From the NCBI GenBank assembly GCA_041608535.1, contig JBFISM010000001.1, positions 30,139 to 94,138 of the forward strand: DNA of 64,000 nt. Reading direction: 5' to 3'. Every line of letters begins with the position of its first letter. Position 1 is the stretch's first letter. Made by a program: the position numbers and the translations under genes. The notes under the pieces are model-generated. The model saw nothing but the letters and a program-made list of their open reading frames with translations, was not told where the DNA came from and made no database searches. Shown here piece by piece: positions 36,557 through 64,000 of the stretch. This DNA comes from Acidimicrobiia bacterium. Lineage in GTDB: Bacteria; Actinomycetota; Acidimicrobiia; Spongiisociales; UBA5794.

Positions 36557-37399
36557 ATGAATCTCGACACCGTGCGAATCCGTCACTTCGCCTATCTCGA
36601 TGCCGTCGCCCGGCTGGGCCATTTCGGAGATGCCGCCGATGCCTTGGACGTGTCCCAACCGGCGCTCTCTCAAGGTCTCGCCCGTCTGGAAGCGGCCGTG
36701 GGGATGCCACTGTTCGAGCGCAGCGGGCGGACGAAGGTGCTCACGCCAGTCGGTTTGGAGCTCGCCGCGCTCGCTGCGCTCGTCGTGTCGGCCACGGGTC
36801 GGACCGAATCCGCCGTCAACGCTCGTCGAACCGGCTCCGGCGGGGTGCTGTCGGTCGGGCTGATAGACGCGGTGGCTCTCTATCTCAAGGCCGAGGCGAT
36901 CGCAGCCTTCCGCAGCGCACACCCCGACGTGACGCTGCGGATCACCATTGCCGGGTCGGGCGATCTGCTCGATGCTCTCGACCGCCACACCATCGATCTG
37001 GCGGTGGTCGTCGCCCCGGCACCGGGTTTCGAGACCAGGCCACTCACGACAGAACCGCTGTTCGTGTACGGCGAGCCGGTGGACTCGCTCGCCGCCGTTG
37101 ATCGTTGGCTGCTCTATCCAGAGGCATCCCACACCCGCAGCGTGATCGATCGAGCGCTCGCCGCCTCCGGTATCACCCCGCTTGTGGAGACCGAGAGCGG
37201 AAACCCGTCCGTCCTCGCCCAGCTCGCCCGTCTCGGTGCCGGTTGGACCGTTCTCCCGGCCGGCATCGCCGAAGCAGGGCCGACTCCGTTGACGAGGATC
37301 GGATCCGCGCTGGGTGAGCGAGACATCGTCGTCGCCCGCCGTAGCACTGCTCCCGCAGATGAACTCGTCGACGTCTTCCTCAACAGCATCGCCGGCTGA
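36557..37399 (+). CDS. LysR family transcriptional regulator
   Basis: N-terminal HTH IRHFAYLDAVARLGHFGDAADALDVSQPALSQGLARLE; LysR substrate-binding domain; 280 aa. Confidence 0.85.
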   Translation: MNLDTVRIRHFAYLDAVARLGHFGDAADALDVSQPALSQGLARLEAAVGMPLFERSGRTKVLTPVGLELAALAALVVSATGRTESAVNARRTGSGGVLSVGLIDAVALYLKAEAIAAFRSAHPDVTLRITIAGSGDLLDALDRHTIDLAVVVAPAPGFETRPLTTEPLFVYGEPVDSLAAVDRWLLYPEASHTRSVIDRALAASGITPLVETESGNPSVLAQLARLGAGWTVLPAGIAEAGPTPLTRIGSALGERDIVVARRSTAPADELVDVFLNSIAG

Positions 37400-38236: not shown

Positions 38237-38311
38237 GCTCTACTCCTTCCCACCCGAAGCAACCTCGTCGCAGGTGACCATCTTCCCGGCATAACCTCCG
38301 ATTGGCCGCTG

Positions 38312-38857
38312 TTGCGCTCGAAGACGACAGTTTTCTTGGGGAGGTCGATGCCGATGCTCGACGTAGCGATGCTGATACTTCGAGTGGGACTGGGCGGCAT
38401 CTTTCTCGCACACGGGATCAAACACGCTCGCGGGAGGCAGAAGACGAGCAACTGGTTCGCCAGCATCGGATTCCGGAACGCCGAATTCAACTGGTTCATG
38501 TCGACCGCCAGCGAGATAGCGGTGGGCGCCTTCCTCATCCTGGGTCTGTTCACGACGCTCGGAGTCGCCGCTCTCGTCGGGGTGATGACCGTCGCCTTCT
38601 GGGTCGTACACCGCAAGGCTGGCTTCTGGGTGACCGCACGACCCGACGAGGGCTGGGAGTACGTGTTCACGCTCGTCTTCACTGCGGCGGCACTGGCGAT
38701 CGCCGGACCCGGCGAGATCTCCCTCGACCACGTGCTCGGAATCGCCGACGACCTCGACGGCTGGGTGGGCGTGGCGGGGGTTGCTGTCGGCGTTGCGAGC
38801 GCTGCGGGCTTACTGGTGACCTTCTGGCGGCCGGCAACTGTGCGGCAGGATCGCTGA
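38312..38857 (+). CDS. DoxX family membrane protein
   Basis: DoxX-like N-terminal MLILRVGLGGIFLAHGIKH and 4 TM helices; probable true start MPMLDV (38351) after GAGG. Confidence 0.7.
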   Translation: MRSKTTVFLGRSMPMLDVAMLILRVGLGGIFLAHGIKHARGRQKTSNWFASIGFRNAEFNWFMSTASEIAVGAFLILGLFTTLGVAALVGVMTVAFWVVHRKAGFWVTARPDEGWEYVFTLVFTAAALAIAGPGEISLDHVLGIADDLDGWVGVAGVAVGVASAAGLLVTFWRPATVRQDR

Positions 38858-38984
38858 GAGTACCTTTCCCAAACAGAGCGTCTTCAGATCATACATTTGA
38901 GCTAAATCGCCTTAGGTTTCACCGCGTTTTTACTGGCTAGACGAGGTGTCACATCGCCCGCTTGCTGGCGCGCCTGGACGGTGG

Positions 38985-39029
38985 GGTGCACACAATGCAC
39001 CAAATCTGTCGATGATCTAGGTCTGTCGA
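38985..39029. promoter_or_regulatory. candidate operator elements upstream of flp: palindrome GGTGCA-CACAA-TGCACC and direct repeats TCTGTCGA x2
   Basis: perfect 6-bp-arm inverted repeat 38985..39001; TCTGTCGA at 39005..39012 and 39022..39029 (17-bp spacing) in AT-rich pilin upstream region. Confidence 0.35.
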
Positions 39030-39070
39030 CCTATTTGATCCAATTCTGCTGATTCTGGCGCCGCTTTTTC

Positions 39071-39098
39071 TTGATCAACATCCCCGTTGCGATATAAT
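39071..39098 (+). promoter_or_regulatory. near-consensus housekeeping-type promoter of flp (TTGATC-N16-TATAAT)
   Basis: -35 TTGATC 39071..39076, -10 TATAAT 39093..39098; predicted TSS ~39105. Confidence 0.55.
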
Positions 39099-39100
39099 TG

Positions 39101-39113
39101 CCCCCTAAGGGGG
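39101..39113 (+). other. 5'UTR hairpin CCCCC-TAA-GGGGG overlapping the flp Shine-Dalgarno (GGGGGA)
   Basis: perfect 5-bp G:C stem with 3-nt loop; 3' arm is the SD 8 nt upstream of ATG 39122; possible translational control element. Confidence 0.4.
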
Positions 39114-39121
39114 ACTTAAAC

Positions 39122-39316
39122 ATGGGGGAAACTTTCCAGGGCCTCACGGCCTCAGATCCAACGAACCAGCAGCGCCGTCTCTCGGGGGAGGACGGTGAGG
39201 TCCGAGTCGAGTACGCCCTCGTGGCGGCTGTACTCGCTGCGGTGGCAGTCGGCATGCTCACGATCATGGATCGAGGCGTGCAGGACGTCGTGGAGGCCGT
39301 CAAGCTGCTGTTCTAG
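39122..39316 (+). CDS. flp: Flp family type IVb pilin
   Basis: 64 aa; Flp motif G/EVRVEYALVAAVLAAVAVGMLTI (G-x4-EY-ALx hydrophobic helix); SD GGGGGA; monocistronic with promoter and terminator. Confidence 0.75.
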   Translation: MGETFQGLTASDPTNQQRRLSGEDGEVRVEYALVAAVLAAVAVGMLTIMDRGVQDVVEAVKLLF

Positions 39317-39344
39317 GAGCACCGCTACCAACTCGGTGCACTAC

Positions 39345-39390
39345 CGAAGGGCGCATCCCCGACACCAGGGTGCGCCCTTCGCCGGTTTTC
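39345..39390 (+). terminator. intrinsic terminator (11-bp stem CGAAGGGCGCA/TGCGCCCTTCG, then GGTTTTCC)
   Basis: perfect stem 39345..39355 / 39371..39381, T-run 39386..39389, 29 nt after flp stop. Confidence 0.7.
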
Positions 39391-39397
39391 CGGCGCC

Positions 39398-40249
39398 TCA
39401 ACCCGACAGCTCCCGCATTCCCAACAACTCGACTGCTTGACCACCGACCCACTCGACGAACGTCCGCTCGGTGAACAACCGGTATTCGGCCACACGCCAC
39501 CAAGCATCCCGGGGATGGACCGCCTCGATGTCGCCCCGGGCCGCACAATGCAGCGAGACGTAGGTGAAGCCCGGTTCCGCCTCGCTCACCAGCCTGCGGA
39601 ACACGACGGGACACTCTTCATCTCGATAACTCAGCCCCATCCAAAAGCGATCGGCAAAGGCAAGCCCGGCGTCTTCGAGCCGTGCTCTGGCATGGTGCAG
39701 GGCGGAGAGATCGGAGTCGTCCCAGTTGACGTCGTTCACATAACCGGCGACGTCCGCAGGGAAGAGTGTGGGGATCTCGTATTCGACAGCGATCGAAACG
39801 GTGACCTCAGCCAGCTCGGGAACCAGAGCAGCACCCATGTGGTGATCGAGATGGGTCACCGTGATACCCGCATCCAGGGCGGTGTCGAGCTGGCGTCGCA
39901 GCTCCACGTCGGCCGCTTCCGCCGACACATTCACCCGCACCTCGTCGACAGTGGTCCACATGAATCCGTCCTCGTCGGCGAGTCCGGGGATCGATGTGAG
40001 GGGTCGCCACCGGAAGGCCGCGGATTCGCTCGTGAGCGCGAGGTGGACGCCCATGTCGAGGTCCGGTCGTCGGCGGCACAGCGCAGCCGTTTCGGCGAAC
40101 CAGCCACTCGGCACGATCGTCGAACCCGACATGACGAGCCCAGCGTCCCACACCTCCTCCATGGCCACGTTGCTCGCGTGGGAGCAGCCGACATCGTCCA
40201 CGTGGAACGCCAGTTGCGCCGGAGGATGGCCGAGCTGGGTCGAGGTCAT
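39398..40249 (-). CDS. ChbG/HpnK (YdjC-like) family carbohydrate deacetylase
   Basis: N-terminal motif LAFHVDDVGCSHASNVAMEEVWDAGLV matching YdjC-like DDFG...N; 283 aa. Confidence 0.65.
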   Translation of the reverse strand: MTSTQLGHPPAQLAFHVDDVGCSHASNVAMEEVWDAGLVMSGSTIVPSGWFAETAALCRRRPDLDMGVHLALTSESAAFRWRPLTSIPGLADEDGFMWTTVDEVRVNVSAEAADVELRRQLDTALDAGITVTHLDHHMGAALVPELAEVTVSIAVEYEIPTLFPADVAGYVNDVNWDDSDLSALHHARARLEDAGLAFADRFWMGLSYRDEECPVVFRRLVSEAEPGFTYVSLHCAARGDIEAVHPRDAWWRVAEYRLFTERTFVEWVGGQAVELLGMRELSG

Positions 40250-40318
40250 CGGAATCTCGTTGCACGGATCGGCGGCACGGAATCAATCGAGCAGCGTAGC
40301 GAGTCCGGCTCCTGCCGA

Positions 40319-49534: not shown

Positions 49535-49681
49535 ATGTCAGTTCCCGACACCCACGGCGAACGCGGCGCCACCATGGTGGAGTACGCCATCATGCTTGCG
49601 CTCATCGCAACCGTATCCATGGTCGTGATCACCACGATCGGCCAGGATGTGCTCGGCGCCTTCGCCTCCGCGAAGTGGTGA
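49535..49681 (+). CDS. flp: Flp family type IVb pilin (48 aa)
   Basis: canonical Flp prepilin motif ERG/ATMVEYAIMLALIATVSMVVITTIG; too short to appear alone in ORF track (it is the C-terminus of artefactual ORF 48515..49681). Confidence 0.75.
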   Translation: MSVPDTHGERGATMVEYAIMLALIATVSMVVITTIGQDVLGAFASAKW

Positions 49682-50007: not shown

Positions 50008-53000
50008 TTGCTGCCGTCTCCGATGAGCCATCCAATCGCAACGCCGTTGACCATCGTGGCGAGACCCCGCCTCGAGGAGCTGCACCGCCTTCTCGGCGAG
50101 CGACGGCTCTGCCTGATCTCTGCCGGTGCCGGCTACGGCAAGACGACCCTGCTCGGGGTATGGCGCGAGCAGGCGCCGACGGGCTTTGTGACGTGCACAG
50201 AGGGGCACGGCAACCTCGGTGTGTTCGCCACCACGGTGACGAACGCGCTGCGCGCCTGGATTCCCGGTCTGCAACCGCGAACGACAGGGGTCGAGTCGAT
50301 GAGCGGCCCGGCGGTGGCGTCCGAGCTGATCGCCGCAGCAGCGCCGCTGATGCAACGTCCGATCCGTCTCTTCTTCGACGATGTCGATGAACTTCGCACG
50401 GGTGAGTCGGCTCGCTTTCTCCAATCTCTGGTGCTGCAGGCTCCGCAGAGCCTCGGGATCGTGCTGGCAGGCCGTAGCGAACCTCCTGTACGAATCGCCA
50501 GACTCCGCGGTCGCGGCCAGCTGCTCGAGCTGACGGCTGCCGACCTTCGCTTCACCTTCGACGAGACGACTCGGTTCGTTGCCGCCACGGCTCCGGAGGT
50601 GGCCGGCTACGTCGACGAGATCCATGCAACGACCGGGGGCTGGCCCGCGGCGGTCCGGCTCACCGTCGAGGCGCTCCGCGGCAGCCCAGTCGACGATCGA
50701 CTCCGCGTGCTGGAACGGGCGCGCCGACCCGGGGGTACGTTGTTCGCCTATCTGGCCGATGAGGTCATCGACAGCGAGCCTCCTCCGGCCAGAGAGATGC
50801 TGCGCACGCTGGCGGCGATCGGGGCGGCTCCCGATGCGCTCGTGCTCGACGTGTGTGGAGGAGAAGAGACTCTGCTGGCGGGACTGCAGCGGCGCGGATT
50901 GTGTGTGGCCAGCGGACCAGACATCAGCGTGCCGCCACTCGTGGCGGACTTTCTCGCCTCAGACGCTCCCCTCGAGGCGACAGAGCGGTTGGGTGCGCTC
51001 GAACGTGCCGCCCACTGGTTCTGCGATCACGGAATGCACCGCCGGGCGCTGGAGCTCGCCACCCGACGGGGGGCAACCGAGCTGGCCGCTGCCATCTGTC
51101 TCGAGCACGGGGAGCAGATCGCCGACTCGGGAGGAGCCGCAGCTGTGCTGGCAGCGCTGCGGACGGTCGACGAGAAAGACCTCACACCGGCGCTCTTGCG
51201 ACTGAAAGCCAACGTGCTGCACACCACGGGCGATTGGGATGCGGCCCTGGCGATCTATGAGGGATTGGACGGCGGCGCCGCCAGCATCCCGGCCGACCTG
51301 GCCTGGCGCATGGGTCTGATCCACCTCCTGCGAGGAGATCCCCACACTGCGACTGAGGTGTACCGGCGTGCGGACATCACGGCCCAGGACGCCGATACCG
51401 CCATCCTGCTCGGCTGGTGGGCGTCGGCCGCCTGGATCACTGCGGAGACCGCTCACTGCCGTTCGTTGGCAAATGAATCATTGGCAACAGCTCAGCGGGT
51501 TGGCGATGACCGCGCCCTGGCGGTGGCGCACACGGTGCTGGCGATGGTTGCAGCTGTGGACGGAGACCGCCACGGCAACGAGGCGCACTACATCGCTGCT
51601 CTGGATCACGCCAAACGGGCCGACGACGTCTTGCAGCAGGTGCGAATCCATGTCAATCGCGCCAGCCACCATCTGGAGGAGGGGCACTATCTCGAATCGA
51701 TCGCGGAGAGCGACCAGGCGCTGACGCTCGCCGAGCTCGGCGACATCGTGCCATTCAAGGCAATGGCGCTACTCAATCGCGGTCAAGCGCTGTCGCGGCT
51801 GGGGCGGTTGGAGGCGGCAGACGCCGATTTCGCCGCAGCCCACAGCGAGTGGGAACGAACCCGTTCCCGGCATGTCGCCTATGCATTGAATGCATTTGGC
51901 GAGAGTCGAACCGCACGGGGAGTCCGGTCGCTGGCGCGATCCGCTCACGAGCAGGCGCTTGCCATCGCGGAGGCGAACTCAGACACACAGGCGCTCATCC
52001 CGGCGCTCGTCGGTCTGGCCAAGGTCACCATCGACGACGATCCGGCGACGGCGCGGCTGCTGGCGAAACGAGCCGCCGACCACGGCCCGAGCCTCGGAAC
52101 GGCCGCGGCGCTGCTTGCCCTGGGGTGGGCCGAGCTGGAGCTGGGCAACACCGAGGCGGCGATCGACAACGCTCGCCGTGCCGGTGACATCGCCAGAGCA
52201 CGGCGGGACCGCGCCGCTACCGCAGAAGCGCTGGAATTGGAAGCGTTTGCTGCGCCCGATGAGGCCAAGCCCCTGCTCGACGAGGCGCTGGAGTTGTGGG
52301 GCAGCCTCGACGACCCCCTCGGGCACGCCAAGTCGCGTCTCGCCCGGTGTCGGCTGCTCCACGCTGACATCGAGGAGCTCGATGAGCTGGCGGCTCTGTT
52401 CGGCAGGCTCGGTGCCCGACATCTCGCCGCCGAGACGAGGGCGATGGTCGAGCGTCTCGGTGCGGAACGACGCAACGCCGTCGTCATCGAAACCCTCGGG
52501 GGCTTCCGCGTTGTCACCGGCGGCGAGCCGGTTCCCGCTTCGGCGTGGCAGTCGAGGAAGGCAAGGGATTTGTGCAAGCTGCTGGTGACCCGGCGGGGCA
52601 AACCGGTCCATCGGGAGGTGCTGCTCGAAGAGCTGTGGCCCGGCGAGGACGGGCAGAAAACGGCGAACCGACTCTCTGTCGCCCTGTCGACGCTCCGCAA
52701 CGTCTTCGACCCCGAGAGGACTCACGATCCCGACCACTACATCGCAGCAGACAAGACATCCGTCGCGCTCGTGCTCGAAGCACTCGAGATCGACGTGGAG
52801 CGATTCATCTCCGCCGCTCGTGACATCCTGGAACACCCGGACGCATCCGAGGCGCGGCTGGAACGCATCGAAGCCGCCTATCGCGGAGATTTCCTCGAGG
52901 AGGATCCGTACGCCGACTGGGCGGTATCGCTGCGGGAAGAGGCGCGAAGCCTGTATCTGCGGCTGGCCCGCAGGCTTGCCGAGCTCACCAGCGAGCGTGG

Positions 53001-53229
53001 CGACCACGATGCCGCAGCCCGCTATCACCTCCGGGTTTTGGAACGTGACCCGTACGACGAGCCTGCCCATCTCGGATTGGTGAGCGCCATGGCCGCCACG
53101 GGCCGGCATGGGGAGGCGCGCCGTCTCTACCGAGCGTATTGCGAGCGGATGGCCGATCTCGACGTCGACCCGCATCCATTCCCCGCCGAGGGACACGCCG
53201 CCACCCAGCCGGCATTCAGGAAAACCTAA
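50008..53229 (+). CDS. large STAND NTPase-TPR regulator with C-terminal SARP (OmpR-type wHTH + BTAD) domain
   Basis: Walker A LISAGAGYGKTTLL near N-terminus; central Ala/Leu-rich TPR-like repeats; C-terminus (about 52480..53229) has wHTH FRVVTGGEPV...LCKLLVTRRGKPVHREVLLEELWP and BTAD EAAYRGDFLEEDPYADWAVSLREEARSLYLRLARRLAEL...ARRLYRAYCERMADLDVDP; 1073 aa. Confidence 0.8.
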   Translation: MLPSPMSHPIATPLTIVARPRLEELHRLLGERRLCLISAGAGYGKTTLLGVWREQAPTGFVTCTEGHGNLGVFATTVTNALRAWIPGLQPRTTGVESMSGPAVASELIAAAAPLMQRPIRLFFDDVDELRTGESARFLQSLVLQAPQSLGIVLAGRSEPPVRIARLRGRGQLLELTAADLRFTFDETTRFVAATAPEVAGYVDEIHATTGGWPAAVRLTVEALRGSPVDDRLRVLERARRPGGTLFAYLADEVIDSEPPPAREMLRTLAAIGAAPDALVLDVCGGEETLLAGLQRRGLCVASGPDISVPPLVADFLASDAPLEATERLGALERAAHWFCDHGMHRRALELATRRGATELAAAICLEHGEQIADSGGAAAVLAALRTVDEKDLTPALLRLKANVLHTTGDWDAALAIYEGLDGGAASIPADLAWRMGLIHLLRGDPHTATEVYRRADITAQDADTAILLGWWASAAWITAETAHCRSLANESLATAQRVGDDRALAVAHTVLAMVAAVDGDRHGNEAHYIAALDHAKRADDVLQQVRIHVNRASHHLEEGHYLESIAESDQALTLAELGDIVPFKAMALLNRGQALSRLGRLEAADADFAAAHSEWERTRSRHVAYALNAFGESRTARGVRSLARSAHEQALAIAEANSDTQALIPALVGLAKVTIDDDPATARLLAKRAADHGPSLGTAAALLALGWAELELGNTEAAIDNARRAGDIARARRDRAATAEALELEAFAAPDEAKPLLDEALELWGSLDDPLGHAKSRLARCRLLHADIEELDELAALFGRLGARHLAAETRAMVERLGAERRNAVVIETLGGFRVVTGGEPVPASAWQSRKARDLCKLLVTRRGKPVHREVLLEELWPGEDGQKTANRLSVALSTLRNVFDPERTHDPDHYIAADKTSVALVLEALEIDVERFISAARDILEHPDASEARLERIEAAYRGDFLEEDPYADWAVSLREEARSLYLRLARRLAELTSERGDHDAAARYHLRVLERDPYDEPAHLGLVSAMAATGRHGEARRLYRAYCERMADLDVDPHPFPAEGHAATQPAFRKT

Positions 53230-57549: not shown

Positions 57550-58701
57550 TCAGCCGACGAGCTGCACCGTCTCGGAGTATCCGATGTCGTCGACCGCACC
57601 CGAGCCGTTGAGCTTCACCACCATCAAATCCGCTTCCACGGGCGAGGGGAGAAACCGCTGGGCGACCATACCGTCCCCGGCAAGCGTGAGCTGCACCTCC
57701 GCAACGAGGTTGCCGTCTCGGTACAGCCACACAAACGCATCCTCCTCCACATCGACGAGGGTCACATCTGTGACGGTCACCAGACCCGTGTCTCCGAAAT
57801 CCTCGAAGTCGAGCACCAGGGTGCAGTCCGTCGTGATGTCATCGGCGTCCTCGGCATAGCTGGGTGCATCGTTGGCGCTCGCACCCGTGGGGCACGGTCC
57901 CCCGAAATCGTCCGGATCGGATGCGTCACCGTCCTCAGAGATGATGAGCACGCCTCCCTGGCCGGGGAGGAACAGATCGTTGTCTCCACCCGAGCAGTTG
58001 GACGCCGGCCCTCCGCCACAGGTGGCATCGAACACCATCGGACCGAAGGCCGTGTTCGATCCAATGGCCACCTCGCCGCTGATGTGGTCGCCGCTGATGC
58101 CATATCCGGCAGAGACCTCACTCGGCTGATCACCAGCGGGGATTCCCTCGAAATCGATCACGGCGCGACGTTTCAGCGAGATGGCGGTCGCCGACACGTC
58201 ACTGGTTTCGAAGCCGAGGACACGAGCGAAGAGGTGTTCCACCGGGTTGCCATATGCCGCGGAGCGGCGGGTGGTCACTTGCACGGCATTGAGGGGAAGA
58301 CCACTGGCCACGAATGTTCTCGTCGACGTGTCCCAGTTCCCCACCACGACGTCGGGCGCTTTGGTCAGGGGACCAGCTCCGTCATCGTTGCGATCGGCGT
58401 AGTCGATGGCGATCACCTCGGCCACCGTTGCAATTGGCAGCCCGCGCGCTGCGGCCGTCGAAGCAGCGTCTGCCGCCGTCTGCAGCTCGGTCCGCACCAC
58501 ATACAGGTGCCCGACATCAACCGCCAGTGCCGCAAAGCCGAAGATCACGAAGAGGAGCAGGCCCACGAAGATCGCCGTTGTCCCCGATTCCATTTCGCCT
58601 GATGCGACACGCCCCCGATGGAAGGAGCCGGTGGGCACCTTTGTCGAAAGAGGTGTGGCGTCGTCCGACGACCGCACCGGCAGCAGCTGCGTCTCCCCCA
58701 T
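57550..58701 (-). CDS. TadE/TadG-like pilus assembly protein with large C-terminal extension (paralog 1)
   Basis: Tad N-terminal domain TTAIFVGLLLFVIFGFAALAVDVGHLYVVRTELQTAADAAS; start ATG 58701 with GGGGGACGGGG SD; C-terminal domain with DATCGGGPASNCSGGD motif. Confidence 0.7.
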   Translation of the reverse strand: MGETQLLPVRSSDDATPLSTKVPTGSFHRGRVASGEMESGTTAIFVGLLLFVIFGFAALAVDVGHLYVVRTELQTAADAASTAAARGLPIATVAEVIAIDYADRNDDGAGPLTKAPDVVVGNWDTSTRTFVASGLPLNAVQVTTRRSAAYGNPVEHLFARVLGFETSDVSATAISLKRRAVIDFEGIPAGDQPSEVSAGYGISGDHISGEVAIGSNTAFGPMVFDATCGGGPASNCSGGDNDLFLPGQGGVLIISEDGDASDPDDFGGPCPTGASANDAPSYAEDADDITTDCTLVLDFEDFGDTGLVTVTDVTLVDVEEDAFVWLYRDGNLVAEVQLTLAGDGMVAQRFLPSPVEADLMVVKLNGSGAVDDIGYSETVQLVG

Positions 58702-58996
58702 GGTCCCCGTCCCCCAATGGCAGCAAATGAATGGTTGCGCCTCGCAGGGACCACGTAGCTGTGAGGTGCTGTATAGGTCTGAAGACGCATCATAGAGGCC
58801 AATGCGATGTACGACCGACGGGAGAGCGTTCACGCTGGGTTTAGCGGTGTGTCCGTCGTACGAGCGAGGTCAGAAAGACGCTTGGGACGGAAGAGATTCA
58901 CTTCCAACAAGGCACTGGGTCCGGCGTGTACCGGACCCAGTGGCCAGGGAGGTGACATGCGGCCGTGCGGTGACGCCCTCGTCTACCGCTACTGCC

Positions 58997-60097
58997 TCAC
59001 CCGACGAGGGAGACCGTCTCGGAATATCCAATGTCGTCGATGGCGCCCGATCCGTTCAGCTTGACCACCATGATGTCGCCGTCGACCGGCGTGGGCAGCA
59101 ACCGCTTGGCCGCCATGCCGTCACCCGCCAGGGTCAGTTGCACTTCGGCCACGAGGTTGCCGTTCCGGTAGATCCAGACAAAGGCGTCTTCCTCGACGTC
59201 GACAAGCGTGACATCCGTGATCGTGACAACTCCCTCGCCGAAGTTCCGGAAGTCGAGCACCAGCGTGCACAGCGTGGTCACGTCGCTGGGATTGGCGACC
59301 CATGCCGGAGCATCGTTGGCGGCAGCCCCTGTCGGGCAGGGCGTCGGTCCCGCATAGTCGTCCGGGTCGCTGGAATCGCCATCCTCAGAGATGATCAGCA
59401 CCCCGCCCTGGGTCGGGACGAAGAGGTCGCTGTCACCGCCTGTGCAGTTGGAGGCCGGCCCGCCGCCGCAGGTTGCGTCGAACACCATGGGACCGAATCC
59501 CGTGTTGGACGAGATGTCGACGGTACCGGGAATCGGGTCGCCGGAGATCCCGTATCCGCTCGATACCGAATAGGGCTGATCACCTGCCGGAATACCTTCG
59601 AAGTCGATGACGGCGTTCTGCCTCAGAGCAATCGATGCAGCTCGCACATCGGTGGTCGGGTTGCCCAGGATCCCGGCGAAGAGGTTGTCCACCGGATTGC
59701 CGTATGCGACCGAACGGTTCGTGATCACCTGCACCGCGTTGAAGGGGAGCCCGTTCTCGGTGTATGTGCGGGTGGACGAATCCCAGTAGCCCACCGAGAT
59801 GTCAGCGGCGTCCGTGATGTTGCCGTTTCCGAACGAGTTCTCGTTGTTGGCGTAATCGAGTGCGATCGCCTCGGCGGCGATCTCGAGCGGGAGCCCCCGA
59901 GCCCCTGCGGTCGCGGCAGCGTCGGCCGCCGTCTGCAGCTCGGCTCGCACCATGTAGATCTGGCCGACGTCGACCGCCAAGGCGGCAAACCCAAAGATCA
60001 CGGTGAGCAGGAGACCGACGAAGATAGCCGACACTCCACTCTCCGAGCGGAGACGCTCGTCCCCCGTTGCCGGCTCCACCACGTCCAGCTCGTTCAT
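58997..60097 (-). CDS. TadE/TadG-like pilus assembly protein with large C-terminal extension (paralog 2)
   Basis: SAIFVGLLLTVIFGFAALAVDVGQIYMVRAELQTAADAAA; 70-85 percent aa identity to paralog 1 along whole length; SD GGGGG 7 nt before ATG 60097. Confidence 0.7.
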   Translation of the reverse strand: MNELDVVEPATGDERLRSESGVSAIFVGLLLTVIFGFAALAVDVGQIYMVRAELQTAADAAATAGARGLPLEIAAEAIALDYANNENSFGNGNITDAADISVGYWDSSTRTYTENGLPFNAVQVITNRSVAYGNPVDNLFAGILGNPTTDVRAASIALRQNAVIDFEGIPAGDQPYSVSSGYGISGDPIPGTVDISSNTGFGPMVFDATCGGGPASNCTGGDSDLFVPTQGGVLIISEDGDSSDPDDYAGPTPCPTGAAANDAPAWVANPSDVTTLCTLVLDFRNFGEGVVTITDVTLVDVEEDAFVWIYRNGNLVAEVQLTLAGDGMAAKRLLPTPVDGDIMVVKLNGSGAIDDIGYSETVSLVG

Positions 60098-60494
60098 GTT
60101 GCACCCCCTGGCCGGGAGGTCCCATCCCCGAGGTCCGGTTCGTCACCGGAGCGGTCTTCGGATTCCCCCGCTTGGCTCGTATTCCCCTTTGCACACCATC
60201 GGACAGCCGAGATGAGCCGCCCGAGTCTCGATGGGACAGAACAGAAGGTCGTTGGCCCGCAACCGCGGCCGCGTGGGCGCAGCGATCAGCGCGACGTGAT
60301 TCCCCCAAATTCCATTCCCCAGCTCGTCGATTCGCCGAACCGGCGATTGCGGCCGTACGCCGCGTGCTCGACTCGCCTTGTGTGTTCGTAGGTTCCGTCA
60401 GTTGTGAGTTGTCGTGGCCCCGCCGGCCTCCTGCACGAAACGGCGTCGGTGCGGTTCCACGTCTATACGACACATGGCCGTGCCGCTTCTTACA

Positions 60495-61478
60495 TCATTC
60501 GGGGAACATGACCTCGTCGATGAGGCTTTCCTCGACGTGACCGCCCTTGGGCTCGAACCTGTAGTGCGCAAAGTCCTTCTCGAACTCGAGATCGAGACCC
60601 TCGGGTCCGTGGCGGTACTTCTCGAAGCTCAGCACGGTCCGCCGTTTGTGCTCCTCTGCCTTCAAGACGTCGAAGGAGGAGTGCAGCTTGGACACGGCGG
60701 TGAACTTGCTGTTGAGCAGGAGCAAGAGATCGGCTTCGTACCCGACGCCGGATGCGCCGTTGAGGTGGTGCATCCGCAGCCGGCGGATGTTGAGCCCGGA
60801 CGCATCCGAAGCGACGATGGCGAGCACGGCGACATCGGCGCTGAGTGCGATCGACTTGAGCCCCTGAGCGATCTTGGCGACGCGGCTCAGGTCCCCCGTG
60901 GCCGGGTGCGGCACTTTCTGGAGGAAGTCCACGATGAGCAGGCTGCCGGGGCCGGCGTGCTGCGCCGTCTCGGTCAGCGCCTGCAGGTCGGTACCGGTAC
61001 GGCTGGCGTTGATGAACCACAGCCGCTCTCCGTAGTCGCTGATCCTGCTGTACGCGGCACGGAGCAACAGGTTCCGGCTCAACTCGTCCTCGAGCGATGC
61101 CTCACCCAGAGCGATGCTGCGGATCGCTGCCCGCGTGGGACCGGAGGCGCCGGGCGCTCCCTCCACGAGGTCGCCCACCTCGAGCAACAGCAACCGGCTG
61201 AGCAGCGTCAGGTGATCGTGGTCGTAACACGCATAGACGACGTTCGTGCCCTGCTCTGCGGCGTTACGGGCCCATTGCATCGACATCACGGTCTTTCCCT
61301 GGCCGGGAGCGCCACCGAGGATGGTCAAGTCCCTGGGTCGCAGTCCACCTTCGAGCACCGTGTCGAGCGGCTCGAATCCGGTCGGAACGGTATGCACCCC
61401 GCGCGCCTCCTCGTCGACCGACGCCAGGACGGCACTCGCCGACCGGAACTGTGGAGCGTTGGGGTGGACTTCGAGCAT
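60495..61478 (-). CDS. RecA-superfamily (KaiC/DnaB-C/RadA-like) P-loop ATPase encoded 19 nt downstream of tadC
   Basis: Walker A GGAPGQGKTVMS, Walker B LLIVDFLQKV, RecA-like fold features; ATG 61478 with AAAGG SD immediately after tadC stop (61498); alternative GTG 61514 would overlap tadC. Confidence 0.7.
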   Translation of the reverse strand: MLEVHPNAPQFRSASAVLASVDEEARGVHTVPTGFEPLDTVLEGGLRPRDLTILGGAPGQGKTVMSMQWARNAAEQGTNVVYACYDHDHLTLLSRLLLLEVGDLVEGAPGASGPTRAAIRSIALGEASLEDELSRNLLLRAAYSRISDYGERLWFINASRTGTDLQALTETAQHAGPGSLLIVDFLQKVPHPATGDLSRVAKIAQGLKSIALSADVAVLAIVASDASGLNIRRLRMHHLNGASGVGYEADLLLLLNSKFTAVSKLHSSFDVLKAEEHKRRTVLSFEKYRHGPEGLDLEFEKDFAHYRFEPKGGHVEESLIDEVMFPE

Positions 61479-61497
61479 GGGGGTGCGACCTTTCGGC

Positions 61498-62430
61498 TCA
61501 GGGGACGAGGGCACCGCCGAGATCGCGGAAGATCCGGATCACGGCAGGACCGAGCAGGATGATGAACATGGCGGGGAAGATGCACATGGCGAGCGGGAAG
61601 ATGAGCTTGACCGGCAGCTTCATCGCCTGCTCTTCGGCACGCTGGAAGCGCTTGTCCCTGAGCTCGTCGGATTGCACCCGCAGCACGCCGGCCACCGGAA
61701 TGCCGTACTGCTCGGATTGCACGACAGCGAGGATGAAGCTGTCGAGATCCGACACCGCGGTACGGCTGGACAGATTGCGGAGAGCCTGCGGGCGAGGGAT
61801 ACCGAGCTGGATCTCGCGCAGCGTGCGCTGCAGCTCGTCGGCAAAAGGTCCCTCACCGGAGCGGGCCACTCTCGCTAGTGCAGCCTCGAAACCCAGCCCG
61901 GCGTCCACCGACATCCGGATCTGGTCGAGGGTGTCTGGAAGTTCGAGCTGGATGCTGTGCTGACGTGCCTTACCCTTTTGTGCGATCAACAGATCGGGCA
62001 GAAAGAAACCCAACGCTGTTACACCGAGCACAATCAGGGGCTGCAGTCGTGGTACCGACCCAAAGGGTCCCAACAGCCCGAAGGCGAGGCCAGCAGCACC
62101 CAGCCCGAATTTGGTGACCAGCATCCGCTCCACCGATGTGGTGTCGGCGTTGCCGGCCAAAACGAGATTCTTCCGCAGGGAGTCCGTCCACCCCGCCGGA
62201 GTGAGGCTCCGCAGGCGCACGCCCATGGCGCGCAGCATCGGGACACCGACACGCTTGCCGATGCCCTGCTGGAGCACCAGCGACCGGGCGTCGGTGGTTT
62301 CCGGCTTGCCCAGGATGCGCTCCCGGCTGGCGGCGCTTGCCGCGCTCACGCGGGTCGAAGCGACGGACCAGTACAAGACCGGGAGCGAGACGGAGACTGC
62401 GACCGCCGCAAGGATGATCTGGATTGGCAT
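61498..62430 (-). CDS. tadC: type II secretion system F family protein (TadC-like)
   Basis: 310 aa, N-terminal TM, cytoplasmic T2SSF domain, C-terminal TM pair; 9 nt after upstream tadB-like gene. Confidence 0.75.
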   Translation of the reverse strand: MPIQIILAAVAVSVSLPVLYWSVASTRVSAASAASRERILGKPETTDARSLVLQQGIGKRVGVPMLRAMGVRLRSLTPAGWTDSLRKNLVLAGNADTTSVERMLVTKFGLGAAGLAFGLLGPFGSVPRLQPLIVLGVTALGFFLPDLLIAQKGKARQHSIQLELPDTLDQIRMSVDAGLGFEAALARVARSGEGPFADELQRTLREIQLGIPRPQALRNLSSRTAVSDLDSFILAVVQSEQYGIPVAGVLRVQSDELRDKRFQRAEEQAMKLPVKLIFPLAMCIFPAMFIILLGPAVIRIFRDLGGALVP

Positions 62431-62439
62431 GGCGTCCTC

Positions 62440-64000
62440 CTAGTACTCCAACTTGGTGATTTTTCTCATCCACAGGACTCCGACCACCATGCCGAGCAAA
62501 CCGGCGGCGACCATGATCTGGCCCATGGTCGACTCGAACAGCTCGAGGAGGTAGTCCGGGTTGATCATCATGAGCGCTCCCACCAAGAACACGGGAAGCG
62601 ATCCCAGAATCACCCCCGAGAAGCGGCCCTCGGCGCTGAGCGACTTGACCCGACGCCGGATACGGTTCCGGTCACGGACGGTGTCGGTGACCGAGTCGAG
62701 GATCTCGCCGAGATCGCCACCGACCTCACGATGAATCTCGATCGCCTCGACCACCCACCGGAAGTCCTCCGATTGGAGGCGATGTGCCATGGCCTTCAGC
62801 GCCTCGTCCGAGTCCCGTCCGAGATGCGTCTCCAGCTTCACCCGGCGGAACTCCTCCCCTGCGGGATCGGCGATCTCGTTGGCGACAGTGTCGACGGCTT
62901 GCATCAGACCAAAACCGGAGCGGAGGCTGCCGGCCATGAGCTGAAGCGCATCTGGGAGCTGGGCGGCGAAGGACGAACGGCGTTTCGACGCTTTCTGGCT
63001 GAGGAAGGCGTAGATACCCAGGACCGTGAAGACGGCAAGTCCGAGCCCGGCGAGCCCGCTGATGGTGGCGAAGCCCACCGCCAAGGCGCCGAGCATGGCG
63101 GCGCCGGTGAGCACCACGAACTCTGCGGGACGCCACGACAGACCGGCCGCTTCAAGCTTGGTGTTGATGACACCGCGCCGCTCGCCCTTCTCGAGGCTGC
63201 GATCGGCGAACAACGTGGCTTGCTCGGCGAGCGACGACAGGGTCTTGCCCTTCGTCTCGCCGAACTTCTTCGACACCGCCTTGGCGACGAGCTGCACGTT
63301 CCTCGGCTGGCCGATACCGGAGAGGAACACGATCGTCGCCAGCGAGACGAACATCATGCCGAGTCCCGTGTAGAGCAGCCCCGGTCGGTCGAACAACCCG
63401 AGCTGCACTTCGAAGCCCTCACGCAACGCCGGAGCCACCGTGGCCACGGGGGCGACGACCGTGGTGGGGGTCACCGAAACCACGCTTGTCGGGGGTACCG
63501 TCTCGGTCACCGGAGGGGGTTCCGGGTATTCCACGATCCCGACGAGCGACGTCGACTGACCGTTGGCGCTGGCGACCACCTCGAGCTCCGTTGCGTCGAA
63601 CGACGCCGACTCGAACGTCAGCGAGAATTGGTTGACGATGGCCGTGGCCAGCTCATTGAGAACGCCCGTGAGCGCTTCCGGGTCGTCGGCGGACACCACC
63701 CGGCTCTCCCCGGCATCGGGGTGAGCTGCTTCGGCGAGCGCTCGCATCGCCACCGGATCGTTCTCCGTTCCTTTCAGCTCGATGGCGTGATAGGCCACAT
63801 CCGTCACCACGAGCCGCTCCTCCAGCTCGATGAGCGTGAGTGCGCTGGCGGTATCGGCGCCGTCGGAGAGCAACACCACGGTATTGCGGGTGTCCTCGAG
63901 CCCGGCGAACTGATCGAGCCCGAGCGCCAGACCGTCGTACAACGCCGTGTTGCCTCCGGTAGAGATGCCCCGGATGGCCTCGGCCAGCTCGGCCGCATCG
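62440..64000 (-). CDS. tadB: VWA domain - TadB-like (T2SSF) fusion protein, 5' end beyond window
   Basis: C-terminal 310 aa T2SSF membrane domain; upstream in same frame, open to window edge: ...GGNTALYDGLALGLDQFAGLEDTRNTVVLLSDGADT (VWA C-terminal half) then Thr/Val/Pro linker; ORF-track start 63942 is a TTG in a frame with no stop up to base 64000. Confidence 0.65.
   Translation of the reverse strand, partial: DAAELAEAIRGISTGGNTALYDGLALGLDQFAGLEDTRNTVVLLSDGADTASALTLIELEERLVVTDVAYHAIELKGTENDPVAMRALAEAAHPDAGESRVVSADDPEALTGVLNELATAIVNQFSLTFESASFDATELEVVASANGQSTSLVGIVEYPEPPPVTETVPPTSVVSVTPTTVVAPVATVAPALREGFEVQLGLFDRPGLLYTGLGMMFVSLATIVFLSGIGQPRNVQLVAKAVSKKFGETKGKTLSSLAEQATLFADRSLEKGERRGVINTKLEAAGLSWRPAEFVVLTGAAMLGALAVGFATISGLAGLGLAVFTVLGIYAFLSQKASKRRSSFAAQLPDALQLMAGSLRSGFGLMQAVDTVANEIADPAGEEFRRVKLETHLGRDSDEALKAMAHRLQSEDFRWVVEAIEIHREVGGDLGEILDSVTDTVRDRNRIRRRVKSLSAEGRFSGVILGSLPVFLVGALMMINPDYLLELFESTMGQIMVAAGLLGMVVGVLWMRKITKLEY

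Follow-up and report, generated by a model that had tools for sequence, protein, structure and literature searches.

Background

Prepilins of the Flp/Fap family are proteins of 50 to 80 aa in which a G/xxxxEY motif precedes a hydrophobic stretch of about 20 residues, and the tadV gene is typically unlinked in actinobacteria (PMC4322843). Examples of the family (PF04964; Tad, or type IVc, pili) are Flp1 of Aggregatibacter actinomycetemcomitans, PilA of Caulobacter and Flp of Micrococcus luteus. Genes of this type are also found outside the tad locus, namely flp3 and flp4 of Bdellovibrio bacteriovorus, of which flp4 is functionally required, and a second flp gene of Agrobacterium tumefaciens; these genes are too divergent for BLAST and were located by motif search (PMC5430801). 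With respect to gene expression, the form CGN-TANNNT is common in actinobacterial promoters, the -10 hexamer normally occupying positions -12 to -7 (PMC3898074). A canonical intrinsic terminator consists of a GC-rich hairpin and an immediately following U-tract of 7 to 9 nt, and mycobacterial RNA polymerase is reported to require the U-tract at intrinsic terminators (PMC3993855).

The gene described here lies in a stretch of 64,000 nt (hereafter, the window), and encodes a 64-aa protein that resembles the Flp/Fap prepilins in its length, its G/xxxxEY register, its hydrophobic stretch, its single long predicted helix and its specific profile similarity to two canonical Flp proteins, with a Tad machine encoded in the same genome segment. 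Unlike those prepilins, the protein scores far under the curated HMM threshold, has an unusually conserved leader, carries Glu or Gln at +1 and an invariant Arg at +3 in a segment that is normally apolar, and has one orthologue without Glu at +5. It shares with the tad-unlinked genes of Bdellovibrio and Agrobacterium (PMC5430801) a position elsewhere on the chromosome and regulation of its own; it differs from them in belonging to a different phylum, in being unrelated in sequence beyond the motif, and in that here even the canonical flp gene lies outside the tad operon, the usual slot being empty.

The locus and its orthologues

Features of the locus are listed in Table 1. The ORF translates as MGETFQ...GEDG/EVRVEYAL... 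(64 aa), and public gene calls place its start at the same ATG. The region upstream is AT-rich, as the preliminary description of the window had stated, with a GC content of 0.44-0.46 at 38850-39100 compared with 0.66 for the whole window, and the GC content upstream of the ORF ties for the lowest 100-nt value in the window. An alternative TTG start at 39098, which overlaps the -10 hexamer and which gene callers do not choose, was rejected. Sites for Dam-type methylation (GATC) are not enriched near the gene (7 sites in 459 nt, compared with 9.0 per kb window-wide), and those upstream of it are not conserved. No Rfam match was found at a permissive E-value in the interval 38700-39500.

Table 1. 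Coordinates of the Flp-like gene, its putative signals and related genes in the window
Feature	Position	Strand	Remarks
DoxX gene	ends at 38857		Upstream neighbour; PF07681, 65 bits
Dyad GCAC-N4-TGC	38988-38998		Part of GTGCACACAATGCAC (38986-39000); candidate site for a transcription factor, expected start about 110 nt downstream
16-bp palindrome TAGGTCTGTCGACCTA	39018-39033		Candidate operator/activator site, centred about 80 nt upstream of expected start
-35-like hexamer TTGATC	39071-39076	+	Promoter scan; TTGCCx or TTGTCT in orthologues
-10 hexamer TATAAT	39093-39098	+	Preceded by CGA; invariant in six loci
C-run CCCCC	39101-39105	+	Proposed 5' hairpin arm; 3-7 nt after -10 hexamer
Shine-Dalgarno sequence AAGGGGGA	39107-39114	+	TAAGGGGGA invariant in six loci
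CDS, predicted divergent Flp-like prepilin (64 aa)	39122-39316	+	ATG 39122; stop 39314-39316
First 3'UTR hairpin GCACCG...CGGTGC	39319-39339	+	Immediately 3' of stop codon
Main 3' stem-loop	39345-39381	+	39345-39355 paired with 39371-39381, 11 bp
Small hairpin GCCGG-TTTT-CCGGC	39381-39394	+	Window-specific; predicted fold; loop is TTTT at 39386-39389
YdjC-type deacetylase gene	39398-40249	-	Convergent; PF04794, 140 bits
Canonical flp gene, MSVPDTHGERG/ATMVEYAIMLALIA...	49535-49681	+	Motif scan; outside tad operon
Tad pilus assembly genes	57550-64000	-	Pfam: two TadG-like, one KaiC/DnaB_C-like ATPase, two T2SSF (TadB/C-like)

Relatives of the protein are few and remote. A word-indexed homologue search with the single protein as query recovered only the window protein itself, and an exhaustive phmmer search of 1.84 billion representatives yielded one true relative together with low-complexity noise; a profile of three sequences was required to reach the seven members of the family, which were obtained as seven clusters (90% identity) of 63-65 aa among 5.8 billion sequences. 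The closest orthologue of the window protein is P0002. Comparison of these sequences indicates that the ORF is a real protein-coding gene, because the six further clusters, which without exception come from uncultured Acidimicrobiia-type contigs, agree with it in length and frame, the dN/dS ratio is 0.31, and 16 of the 29 invariant residues are synonymously variable. The start and stop are also kept among the orthologues (63-65 codons), and the differences at codon positions 1, 2 and 3 number 14, 15 and 26, respectively.

The gene order DUF5996 - DoxX - Flp-like gene is kept wherever the upstream side is visible (the window, L001-L009, L013/L018, L014 and L015), with a conserved spacer of 264-345 nt between DoxX and the Flp-like gene, and synteny spans the whole block from an inositol-phosphate synthase gene to DoxX. 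The downstream neighbour differs among loci; the only conserved neighbour is DoxX, and no tad gene is among the conserved neighbours. The orthologue in L015 has a canonical Flp_Fap gene (44.2 bits) directly upstream, between it and DoxX. A scan of genome contigs with the neighbouring YdjC gene found only distant YdjC genes of Devosia and Vibrio, and was uninformative as to synteny.

Relationship to Flp prepilins

The predicted leader comprises residues 1-25, and the predicted cleavage after Gly25 would release a 39-aa mature peptide, EVRVEYALVAAVLAAVAVGMLTIMDRGVQDVVEAVKLLF. The motif reads G25/E-V-R-V-E30-Y31 and continues as ALVAAVLAAVAVGMLTIM, and the hydrophobic stretch beyond it spans about 19 residues. 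Residues 24-63 are predicted to form a single helix, and the AlphaFold model is one helix of moderate confidence (mean pLDDT 64), too featureless for fold comparison. Within the family, all seven sequences have Gly at -1 and Tyr at +6, Arg at +3 is likewise invariant, and +1 is Glu or Gln. Six of the seven have Glu at +5, the exception being P0006, in which Gly replaces it (VGY) in an identical sequence obtained from two independent samples. Conservation of the leader (MGDTFQG..ASDP) almost equals that of the mature part.

The comparison with the Pfam model Flp_Fap (PF04964) that had been proposed as a check counts in part against the preliminary description, as the protein falls below threshold, with 15.4 bits against a gathering cut-off of 32.2; P0007 and P0008 score about 14 bits, and P0002, P0006, P0009 and P0010 have no match to Flp_Fap even at E <= 10. 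A search of NCBIfam with the window protein gave no match, and BLASTP gave no alignment between it and the canonical Flp protein of the window. The best Pfam match by a margin is DUF4244 (PF14029), which we take to be a family of small actinobacterial proteins with a Flp-like motif; it covers the same motif-plus-helix region (residues 17-46) at 15.8 bits, short of the 27-bit cut-off, and the other members of the present family do not match it.

With hhalign, the seven-sequence profile matched the Flp protein of L015 over the full length (94% probability, E = 1.4e-7) and the canonical Flp protein of the window (87% probability, E = 3.9e-6). The two Flp proteins scored 30.3 and 38.3, both more than 9 SD above 281 membrane segments used as controls (9.9 +/- 2.2, maximum 16.6), and reversed Flp sequences scored 9.5 and 11.6. 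The similarity to Flp is judged to be specific, beyond generic hydrophobicity, because the membrane-segment controls score so much lower than the two Flp proteins. Weak profile matches to the Tad pilins 8u1k and 8u2b in the PDB align V29-E30-Y31 with mature positions 4-6. These comparisons identify the protein as a remote Flp homologue. The name Flp prepilin given in the preliminary description is thus supported by the G/xxxxEY register, the size, the hydrophobic helix and the profile similarity, but is overstated in view of the score against the Flp_Fap model.

Tad genes and the canonical flp gene

The tad cluster runs off the end of the window. Its genes are about 18-25 kb from the Flp-like gene (the nearest begins at 57550), in agreement with the distance of about 20 kb given previously. 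Pfam and motif scans of the window found no pilin ORF at the place in the tad operon that flp usually occupies, and no gene for a prepilin peptidase (Peptidase_A24) was found in the window. A canonical flp gene (Flp_Fap 31.6 bits, E = 1.4e-7), the start codon of which was assigned from an upstream GAAAGGA, is present elsewhere in the window, so that the Flp-like gene, which had been described as alone, is so only locally, between DoxX and YdjC. It differs from typical tad-linked flp genes in lying 18 kb from the tad operon, beside DoxX and YdjC genes.

Promoter and upstream elements

A conserved promoter of the sigma-70/sigma-A type belonging to the gene itself is well supported by comparison of the orthologous loci. 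The sequence TTGATC-16-TATAAT at 39071-39098, recognized already in the preliminary description, matches 10 of 12 consensus positions; its TTG and its 16-nt spacing, which falls in the 16-18 nt of such promoters, are kept in six loci in a gap-free alignment, and its -10 hexamer, an exact TATAAT found nowhere else in the 64 kb on either strand, is invariant in all of them. Two upstream palindromic elements are also conserved. The GCAC and TGC of the dyad are invariant in the six orthologous loci while their flanks diverge, and the 16-bp palindrome, of which TAGGTCTGTCGACCTA is the one copy in the window, has the consensus TAGGTCG-NN-CGACCTA with half-sites that are invariant or nearly so in the six loci. 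Candidates for a regulator that would bind the two elements include the LysR-type regulator encoded nearby (36557-37399) and the BTAD regulator (50008-53229).

Shine-Dalgarno sequence and leader

The run GGGGG at 39109-39113, proposed earlier as the Shine-Dalgarno sequence, ends 8 nt before the ATG and is invariant across the six loci, as a Shine-Dalgarno sequence would be. It is preceded by CCCCC and TAA, and the preliminary description had the 5'UTR begin with the C-run and fold as CCCCC-TAA-GGGGG, with sequestration of the Shine-Dalgarno sequence and possible structural control of translation. Hairpins of the 5'UTR that sequester this sequence, RNA thermometers among them, are a known form of such control. 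Like an RNA thermometer, the G-run here can pair with an upstream C-run: the 5-bp, all-GC pairing exists in the DNA, with an energy of -9.1 kcal/mol for the isolated hairpin in the window, L013 and L015; conservation of TGCC..CCTAAGGGGGA is strong; and a transcript reading through from DoxX would carry both arms. Unlike in RNA thermometers, the upstream arm is in the discriminator, is probably untranscribed, and is unmaintained in three of six orthologues.

The geometry of the promoter places the expected +1 at about 39105, plausibly between 39104 and 39108, which is inside or beyond the 5' arm because the arm begins only 3 nt past the -10 hexamer (PMC3898074); therefore, at most one or two C of the arm are predicted to be transcribed. 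A 5'UTR beginning with CCCCC also clashes with the transcription start near 39105 that accompanied the proposal. In L014 and L016 the 5' arm reads CCACC, and in L017 it reads CGGCC, so that the central pair of the hairpin is broken in three of six loci and the second pair in one, with no compensatory change in any, and the energy of the isolated hairpin falls to -3.8 and -1.7 kcal/mol in loci with a changed arm. The C-run competes as well for a second G-run at the start codon, and the mean pairing probability of the Shine-Dalgarno sequence is only about 0.3 even when the C-run arm is included. Folding in silico, a check suggested together with the hairpin, gave a structure no better than those of shuffled sequences (z = +0.41 and -0.23). 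Control of translation by this hairpin, for instance as an RNA thermometer, is not supported and is considered highly improbable, and the C-run is more likely to be a G+C-rich discriminator or start-site region that is largely untranscribed. The C-run/G-run palindrome was also rejected as a repeated element or operator, being unique in the window and having lost its symmetry in three of six orthologues.

Structures at the 3' end

Two stem-loops follow the stop codon in the orthologous loci. The first is formed in all six orthologues out of differing sequences, with one pair alternating between A-U and G-C. The main stem starts about 30 nt past the stop codon, between convergent genes, and has a length of 10 to 13 bp and z of -5.1 to -6.4 in the six loci, where none of 200 shuffles folds as well; its 10-bp core, GAAGGGCGCA/TGCGCCCTTC, is invariant, and three inner pairs are kept via one-sided changes. 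A conserved GGT 3' of the stem pairs with an ACC 5' of it in several orthologues. The core is single-copy in the window, and the stem was rejected as a REP-type dispersed repeat. The small hairpin with the TTTT loop is absent from L013-L017, in which the sequence after the stem is ATAGGTTTTCGG, ACAGGTTCCTCG, ATAGGTCATGGG, ACAGGTTTCTGG or ATAGGTTTCTTG.

As a GC-rich, very stable hairpin the main stem resembles a canonical terminator, and the 11-bp GC stem of what had been called a textbook intrinsic terminator is indeed present. It is unlike one in its U-run, which is of no more than 4 nt (39386-39389), lies 4 nt beyond the stem and is missing from L014 and L015; a scan for consensus terminators found none around the Flp-like gene. 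The structure may protect the 3' end rather than terminate transcription, because mycobacterial polymerase is reported to require the U-tract (PMC3993855). The main stem-loop probably serves either to terminate transcription with at most a short U-tract or to stabilise the 3' end.

Interpretation of the locus

The Flp-like gene is probably a monocistronic, divergent unit of the Flp family with its own promoter, short leader and 3' stem-loops. Its product would belong to the Flp (Tad, type IVc) prepilins as a divergent paralogue confined to a narrow group of Acidimicrobiia. Transcription would proceed from a sigma-A/sigma-70-type promoter, TTGnnn-16-(CGN)TATAAT, probably regulated at the DNA level via the two conserved upstream palindromes, and would start at about 39104-39108 to give a leader of about 14-18 nt, essentially an exposed AAGGGGGA positioned 8 nt before the ATG, the C-run being promoter discriminator DNA and not an arm of an RNA hairpin. 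The transcript would end in the very stable, sequence-conserved pair of 3' stem-loops, which would either terminate transcription with at most a short U-tract or protect the 3' end. The prepilin is predicted to insert into the membrane, where a TadV-type peptidase encoded outside the window may cut it after Gly25, and the Tad machinery (57.5-64 kb) may use the product as an alternative or minor pilin beside the canonical Flp.

Alternatively, the protein may be Flp-derived or Flp-resembling and no longer a pilus subunit, that is, a small single-pass membrane protein, maybe uncleaved, with another role that is possibly tied to the neighbouring DoxX/DUF5996 membrane redox genes. We regard this as somewhat unlikely. 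The upstream gene order that is kept while the downstream gene varies would fit such a role, as would a leader almost as conserved as the mature part, the invariant Arg at +3, the loss of Glu at +5 in P0006 and the HMM scores under threshold; but the gene possesses a conserved promoter of its own, a conserved spacer separates it from DoxX, another flp gene intervenes between the two in L015, the linkage may reflect common descent in a narrow clade as the block from inositol-phosphate synthase to DoxX is syntenic throughout, and the G/xxxxEY register exactly matches the Flp processing site. A clade-specific Flp offshoot that has acquired a new role, as a specialised tip or priming pilin or as a small peptide that is exported or resides in the membrane, and that is expressed from a stand-alone unit under tight regulation whose sequence-invariant 3' stem-loop and two palindromes are specific recognition sites of regulators and not generic signals, is a speculative reading to which we give rather little credence; the features that distinguish it are the invariant Arg at +3, the conserved leader and the dispensable Glu at +5.

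Two further explanations are very improbable. The short, hydrophobic, single-helix product, the unusually strong appearance of the promoter and the very stable 3' structure are reminiscent of a type I toxin-like peptide encoded by a highly structured mRNA, but the similarity to Flp is specific and not a matter of generic hydrophobicity, a promoter scan of the opposite strand at 38300-40300 gave no promoter-like site, Rfam offers no match and the predicted leader is unstructured. It is equally hard to credit that the ORF is spurious and that the conserved block represents a regulatory region or a non-coding RNA: the CDS is less conserved than the non-coding elements that flank it on either side, and the protein lacks a family match above threshold, yet frame, start, stop and length are conserved, the dN/dS ratio is low with an excess of third-position changes, the Shine-Dalgarno sequence is invariant and correctly spaced, and the Rfam search was again negative.

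Conclusions

The advance is a modest one: flp genes that are stray or multiple have been described before, and the present analysis demonstrates no new mechanism. The locus is a cautionary case in which what appears to be a C-run/G-run hairpin over a Shine-Dalgarno sequence can be a promoter discriminator beside a G-rich Shine-Dalgarno sequence, and six orthologous loci were enough to expose the discriminator nature of the C-run. The family described here is an additional Flp-like subfamily, very divergent and narrowly distributed, that goes undetected by curated HMMs. Both pilin-type genes of the window are outside the tad operon, which matters for the annotation of Tad systems in environmental actinobacteria and bears on the supply and regulation of major and minor Flp pilins.

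An Flp-like gene confined to a narrow clade

All of the sequence elements listed in the preliminary description are physically present in the window, which has a G+C content of 65.9% overall; the 264 nucleotides preceding the Flp-like ORF tie for its most AT-rich stretch (0.44 G+C per 100 nt). Public gene calls from ten contigs of the same population agree on the start codon, and these contigs, being 99.4-100% identical, carry no comparative information. A profile search of 5.8 billion proteins yielded seven 90%-identity clusters, all of 63 to 65 amino acids and one of them labelled Acidimicrobiia bacterium, and an exhaustive phmmer search of 1.84 billion representatives turned up only one true relative cluster. 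Five diverged orthologues could be compared at the DNA level (loci L013/L018, L014, L015, L016 and L017), in every one of which frame, start and stop are kept. Between the coding sequences of the window and L013 (59% amino-acid identity), dN/dS is 0.31, with 14 differences at first, 15 at second and 26 at third codon positions; across all six coding sequences, 16 of the 29 invariant residues show synonymous codon variation. The gene is almost certainly genuine. Its upstream neighbours are kept in order across loci (inositol-phosphate synthase, LysR, DUF5996, DoxX, with Meth_synt_2 between LysR and DUF5996 in L014 and L018), and the gene on its 3' side varies (YdjC, epimerase or LVIVD protein).

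Features of the Flp-like locus and of the pilus-related genes in the window
Feature	Position	Strand	Remarks
DoxX gene	ends 38857		upstream of Flp-like gene; Pfam, 65 bits
GCAC-N4-TGC dyad	38988-38998		
Palindrome, 16 bp	39018-39033		TAGGTCnnnCGACCTA; one copy in window
Promoter TTGATC-16-TATAAT	39071-39098	+	in AT-rich stretch 5' of ORF
CCCCC, TAA, GGGGG	39101-39105 (C-run), 39109-39113 (G-run)	+	5' of ATG
Flp-like ORF, 64 codons	ATG 39122, stop 39314-39316	+	product MGETFQGLTASDPTNQQRRLSGEDGEVRVEYALVAAVLAAVAVGMLTIMDRGVQDVVEAVKLLF
Main 3' stem arms	39345-39355, 39371-39381		CGAAGGGCGCA pairs with TGCGCCCTTCG; downstream of ORF
TTTT	39386-39389	+	3' of main stem
YdjC-type deacetylase gene	39398-40249	-	convergent to Flp-like gene; Pfam, 140 bits
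Canonical flp	49535-49681	+	MSVPDTHGERG/ATMVEYAIML...; Flp_Fap, 31.6 bits
Regulator, 1073 aa	50008-53229	+	TPR, Trans_reg_C and BTAD; 3' of canonical flp
Tad genes	57550-64000	-	two TadG-like, KaiC/DnaB_C-like ATPase, two T2SSF
KaiC/DnaB_C/AAA_25-like ATPase	60495-61514	-	in usual flp slot, between TadC-like and TadG-like genes

Promoter and leader

Between the -35 element and the ATG, the upstream regions of all six orthologous loci can be aligned gap-free. The -10 hexamer TATAAT, which has no other exact copy in the 64 kb whichever strand is read, is unchanged in all six and directly preceded by CGA or CGG, the -35 TTG and the 16-nt spacer are retained, and TAAGGGGGA is invariant; the common actinobacterial -10 form is CGN-TANNNT (PMC3898074). 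Transcription of the gene is probably strong. Farther upstream, two dyad-symmetric blocks, GCAC-N4-TGC and the palindrome, are conserved in all six loci amid diverged sequence, and both are probably binding sites for transcription factors or other proteins. A LysR-type gene (36557-37399) is situated near these candidate sites.

The preliminary description proposed that a CCCCC-TAA-GGGGG hairpin opens the 5'UTR and sequesters the Shine-Dalgarno sequence (SD), a proposal that fails on geometry, ortholog comparison and thermodynamics. Because a -10 hexamer occupies positions -12 to -7 (PMC3898074), +1 is expected at about 39105, with purines at 39107-39109; therefore at most one or two bases of the 5' arm would be in the RNA, and a start near 39105 is incompatible with a leader beginning with CCCCC. 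Three loci have CCCCC as the 5' arm, two have CCACC and one has CGGCC, and the GGGGG, which ends 8 nt before the ATG, is constant, so that the central pair is broken in three of six loci and the second pair in one, without compensation; where the arm is changed, the hairpin folded by itself has an energy of -3.8 or -1.7 kcal/mol, compared with -9.1 kcal/mol for the CCCCC form. Folds that include the C-run arm are no better than shuffles (z = +0.41 and -0.23), and the mean SD-paired probability is about 0.3 because the C-run can pair either with the SD or with another G-run, located at codons 1-3. Leaders from the expected +1 are predicted to be essentially unstructured. Control of the SD by this hairpin is very probably absent, and the simplest reading of the two runs is a G+C-rich discriminator beside a G-rich SD; read-through transcripts from DoxX, which would contain the hairpin, are a residual possibility.

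Conserved structure at the 3' end

What had been described as a textbook intrinsic terminator is a real and conserved structure, but it lacks a U-tract and has no match in the consensus terminator scan, which reported none at the 3' end of this gene. Two hairpins are found in all six 3' regions (z = -5.4 to -6.4; 0/200 shuffles as good). The first keeps its shape with differing sequences, one pair alternating between A-U and G-C. The second has a 10-bp core (GAAGGGCGCA/TGCGCCCTTC) identical in all six loci, including L013, from which the window differs by a coding-sequence dS of about 0.8; three inner pairs are retained through one-sided changes, and a conserved GGT pairs with ACC before the stem in several orthologues. 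The invariance of the core exceeds what structure alone needs. The stem is followed by CCGG-TTTT-CCGG in the window, where TTTT is the loop of a window-specific hairpin, by GGTTCCTCG in L014 and by GGTCATGGG in L015. Canonical terminators need a U-tract of 7-9 nt directly after the hairpin, and the label "textbook" is therefore wrong. The title of PMC3993855 states that mycobacterial RNA polymerase requires a U-tract at intrinsic terminators. The structure may be a transcription terminator, a 3'-end stabiliser or a binding element.

Canonical flp and the tad genes

About 7.9 kb separate the TadG-like genes from the canonical flp, which is situated at the end of a long open frame; neither a consensus promoter nor a consensus terminator was found around it. 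Actinobacterial tad operons usually carry flp after tadC and before tadE/F/G (PMC4322843); this slot in the window (60098-61514, minus strand) holds the ATPase gene and then a gap of 397 nt that contains no pilin-like ORF, and therefore both pilin-type genes are encoded elsewhere. Location outside the tad locus is shared with flp genes already described in Bdellovibrio and Agrobacterium (PMC5430801). No prepilin peptidase gene was found within the window, as is usual for actinobacteria (PMC4322843). In one TadG-like gene (57550-58833, minus strand), the Tad domain begins only at residue 84 of the longest open frame, and an internal methionine starts MGETQLL..., resembling the MGETFQG start of the Flp-like protein.

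Relationship to Flp pilins

Flp pilins are defined by a length of 50-80 amino acids and G/XXXXEY followed by a hydrophobic segment roughly 20 residues long (PMC4322843), a register that the window protein satisfies (G25/EVRVE30Y31). Among the seven family members, Gly -1 and Tyr +6 are invariant and Glu +5 is present in six. The AlphaFold model predicts a disordered leader and a single helix across residues 24-63. The profile of the seven sequences aligned end-to-end by hhalign with a canonical Flp of L015 (probability 94%, E = 1.4e-7), and also matched the canonical flp product of the window (probability 87%, E = 3.9e-6). Scores were 30.3 and 38.3 for these two Flp proteins, compared with 9.9 +/- 2.2 (maximum 16.6) for 281 control segments of 60 amino acids from membrane proteins of the window, and 9.5 and 11.6 for reversed Flp sequences. 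Matches to the Tad pilins 8u1k and 8u2b in the PDB are sub-significant, with V-E-Y at mature positions 4-6. The window protein scores below the Pfam cut-offs for Flp_Fap (15.4 versus 32.2 bits) and DUF4244 (15.8 versus 27 bits) and has no match in NCBIfam; four family members have no Flp_Fap match at E <= 10. Unlike the Flp family, this family has an invariant Arg +3, Glu or Gln at +1 and a well-conserved leader. Homology of the window protein to Flp is likely, and the chances that it is a processed Tad pilin are about even. A metagenomic protein from outside the window (P0004, 418 amino acids; weak phmmer match, E = 1.8e-4) has four tandem Flp-like modules separated by spacers, each G-x-G-x-V-E/L-Y followed by a hydrophobic helix.

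The L015 gene just mentioned (784-981; 65 amino acids, 44.2 bits, passing the Flp_Fap model) lies between DoxX and the orthologue, an arrangement that suggests an origin of the family by tandem duplication of flp at this site. In one family cluster (P0006; L013 2895-3086 and L018 6530-6721), VGY replaces VEY, leaving Gly instead of Glu at +5; this is not a sequencing error, since the identical protein comes from two independent metagenomes. In other type IV systems, the filament tip is capped by subunits without Glu5 (PMC10191384), and by analogy a minor-pilin role for the Flp-like protein may be taken as a lead. The protein is best read as a remote paralogue of Flp, probably derived by duplication, and its gene is independently transcribed, divergent and confined to a narrow clade of Acidimicrobiia.
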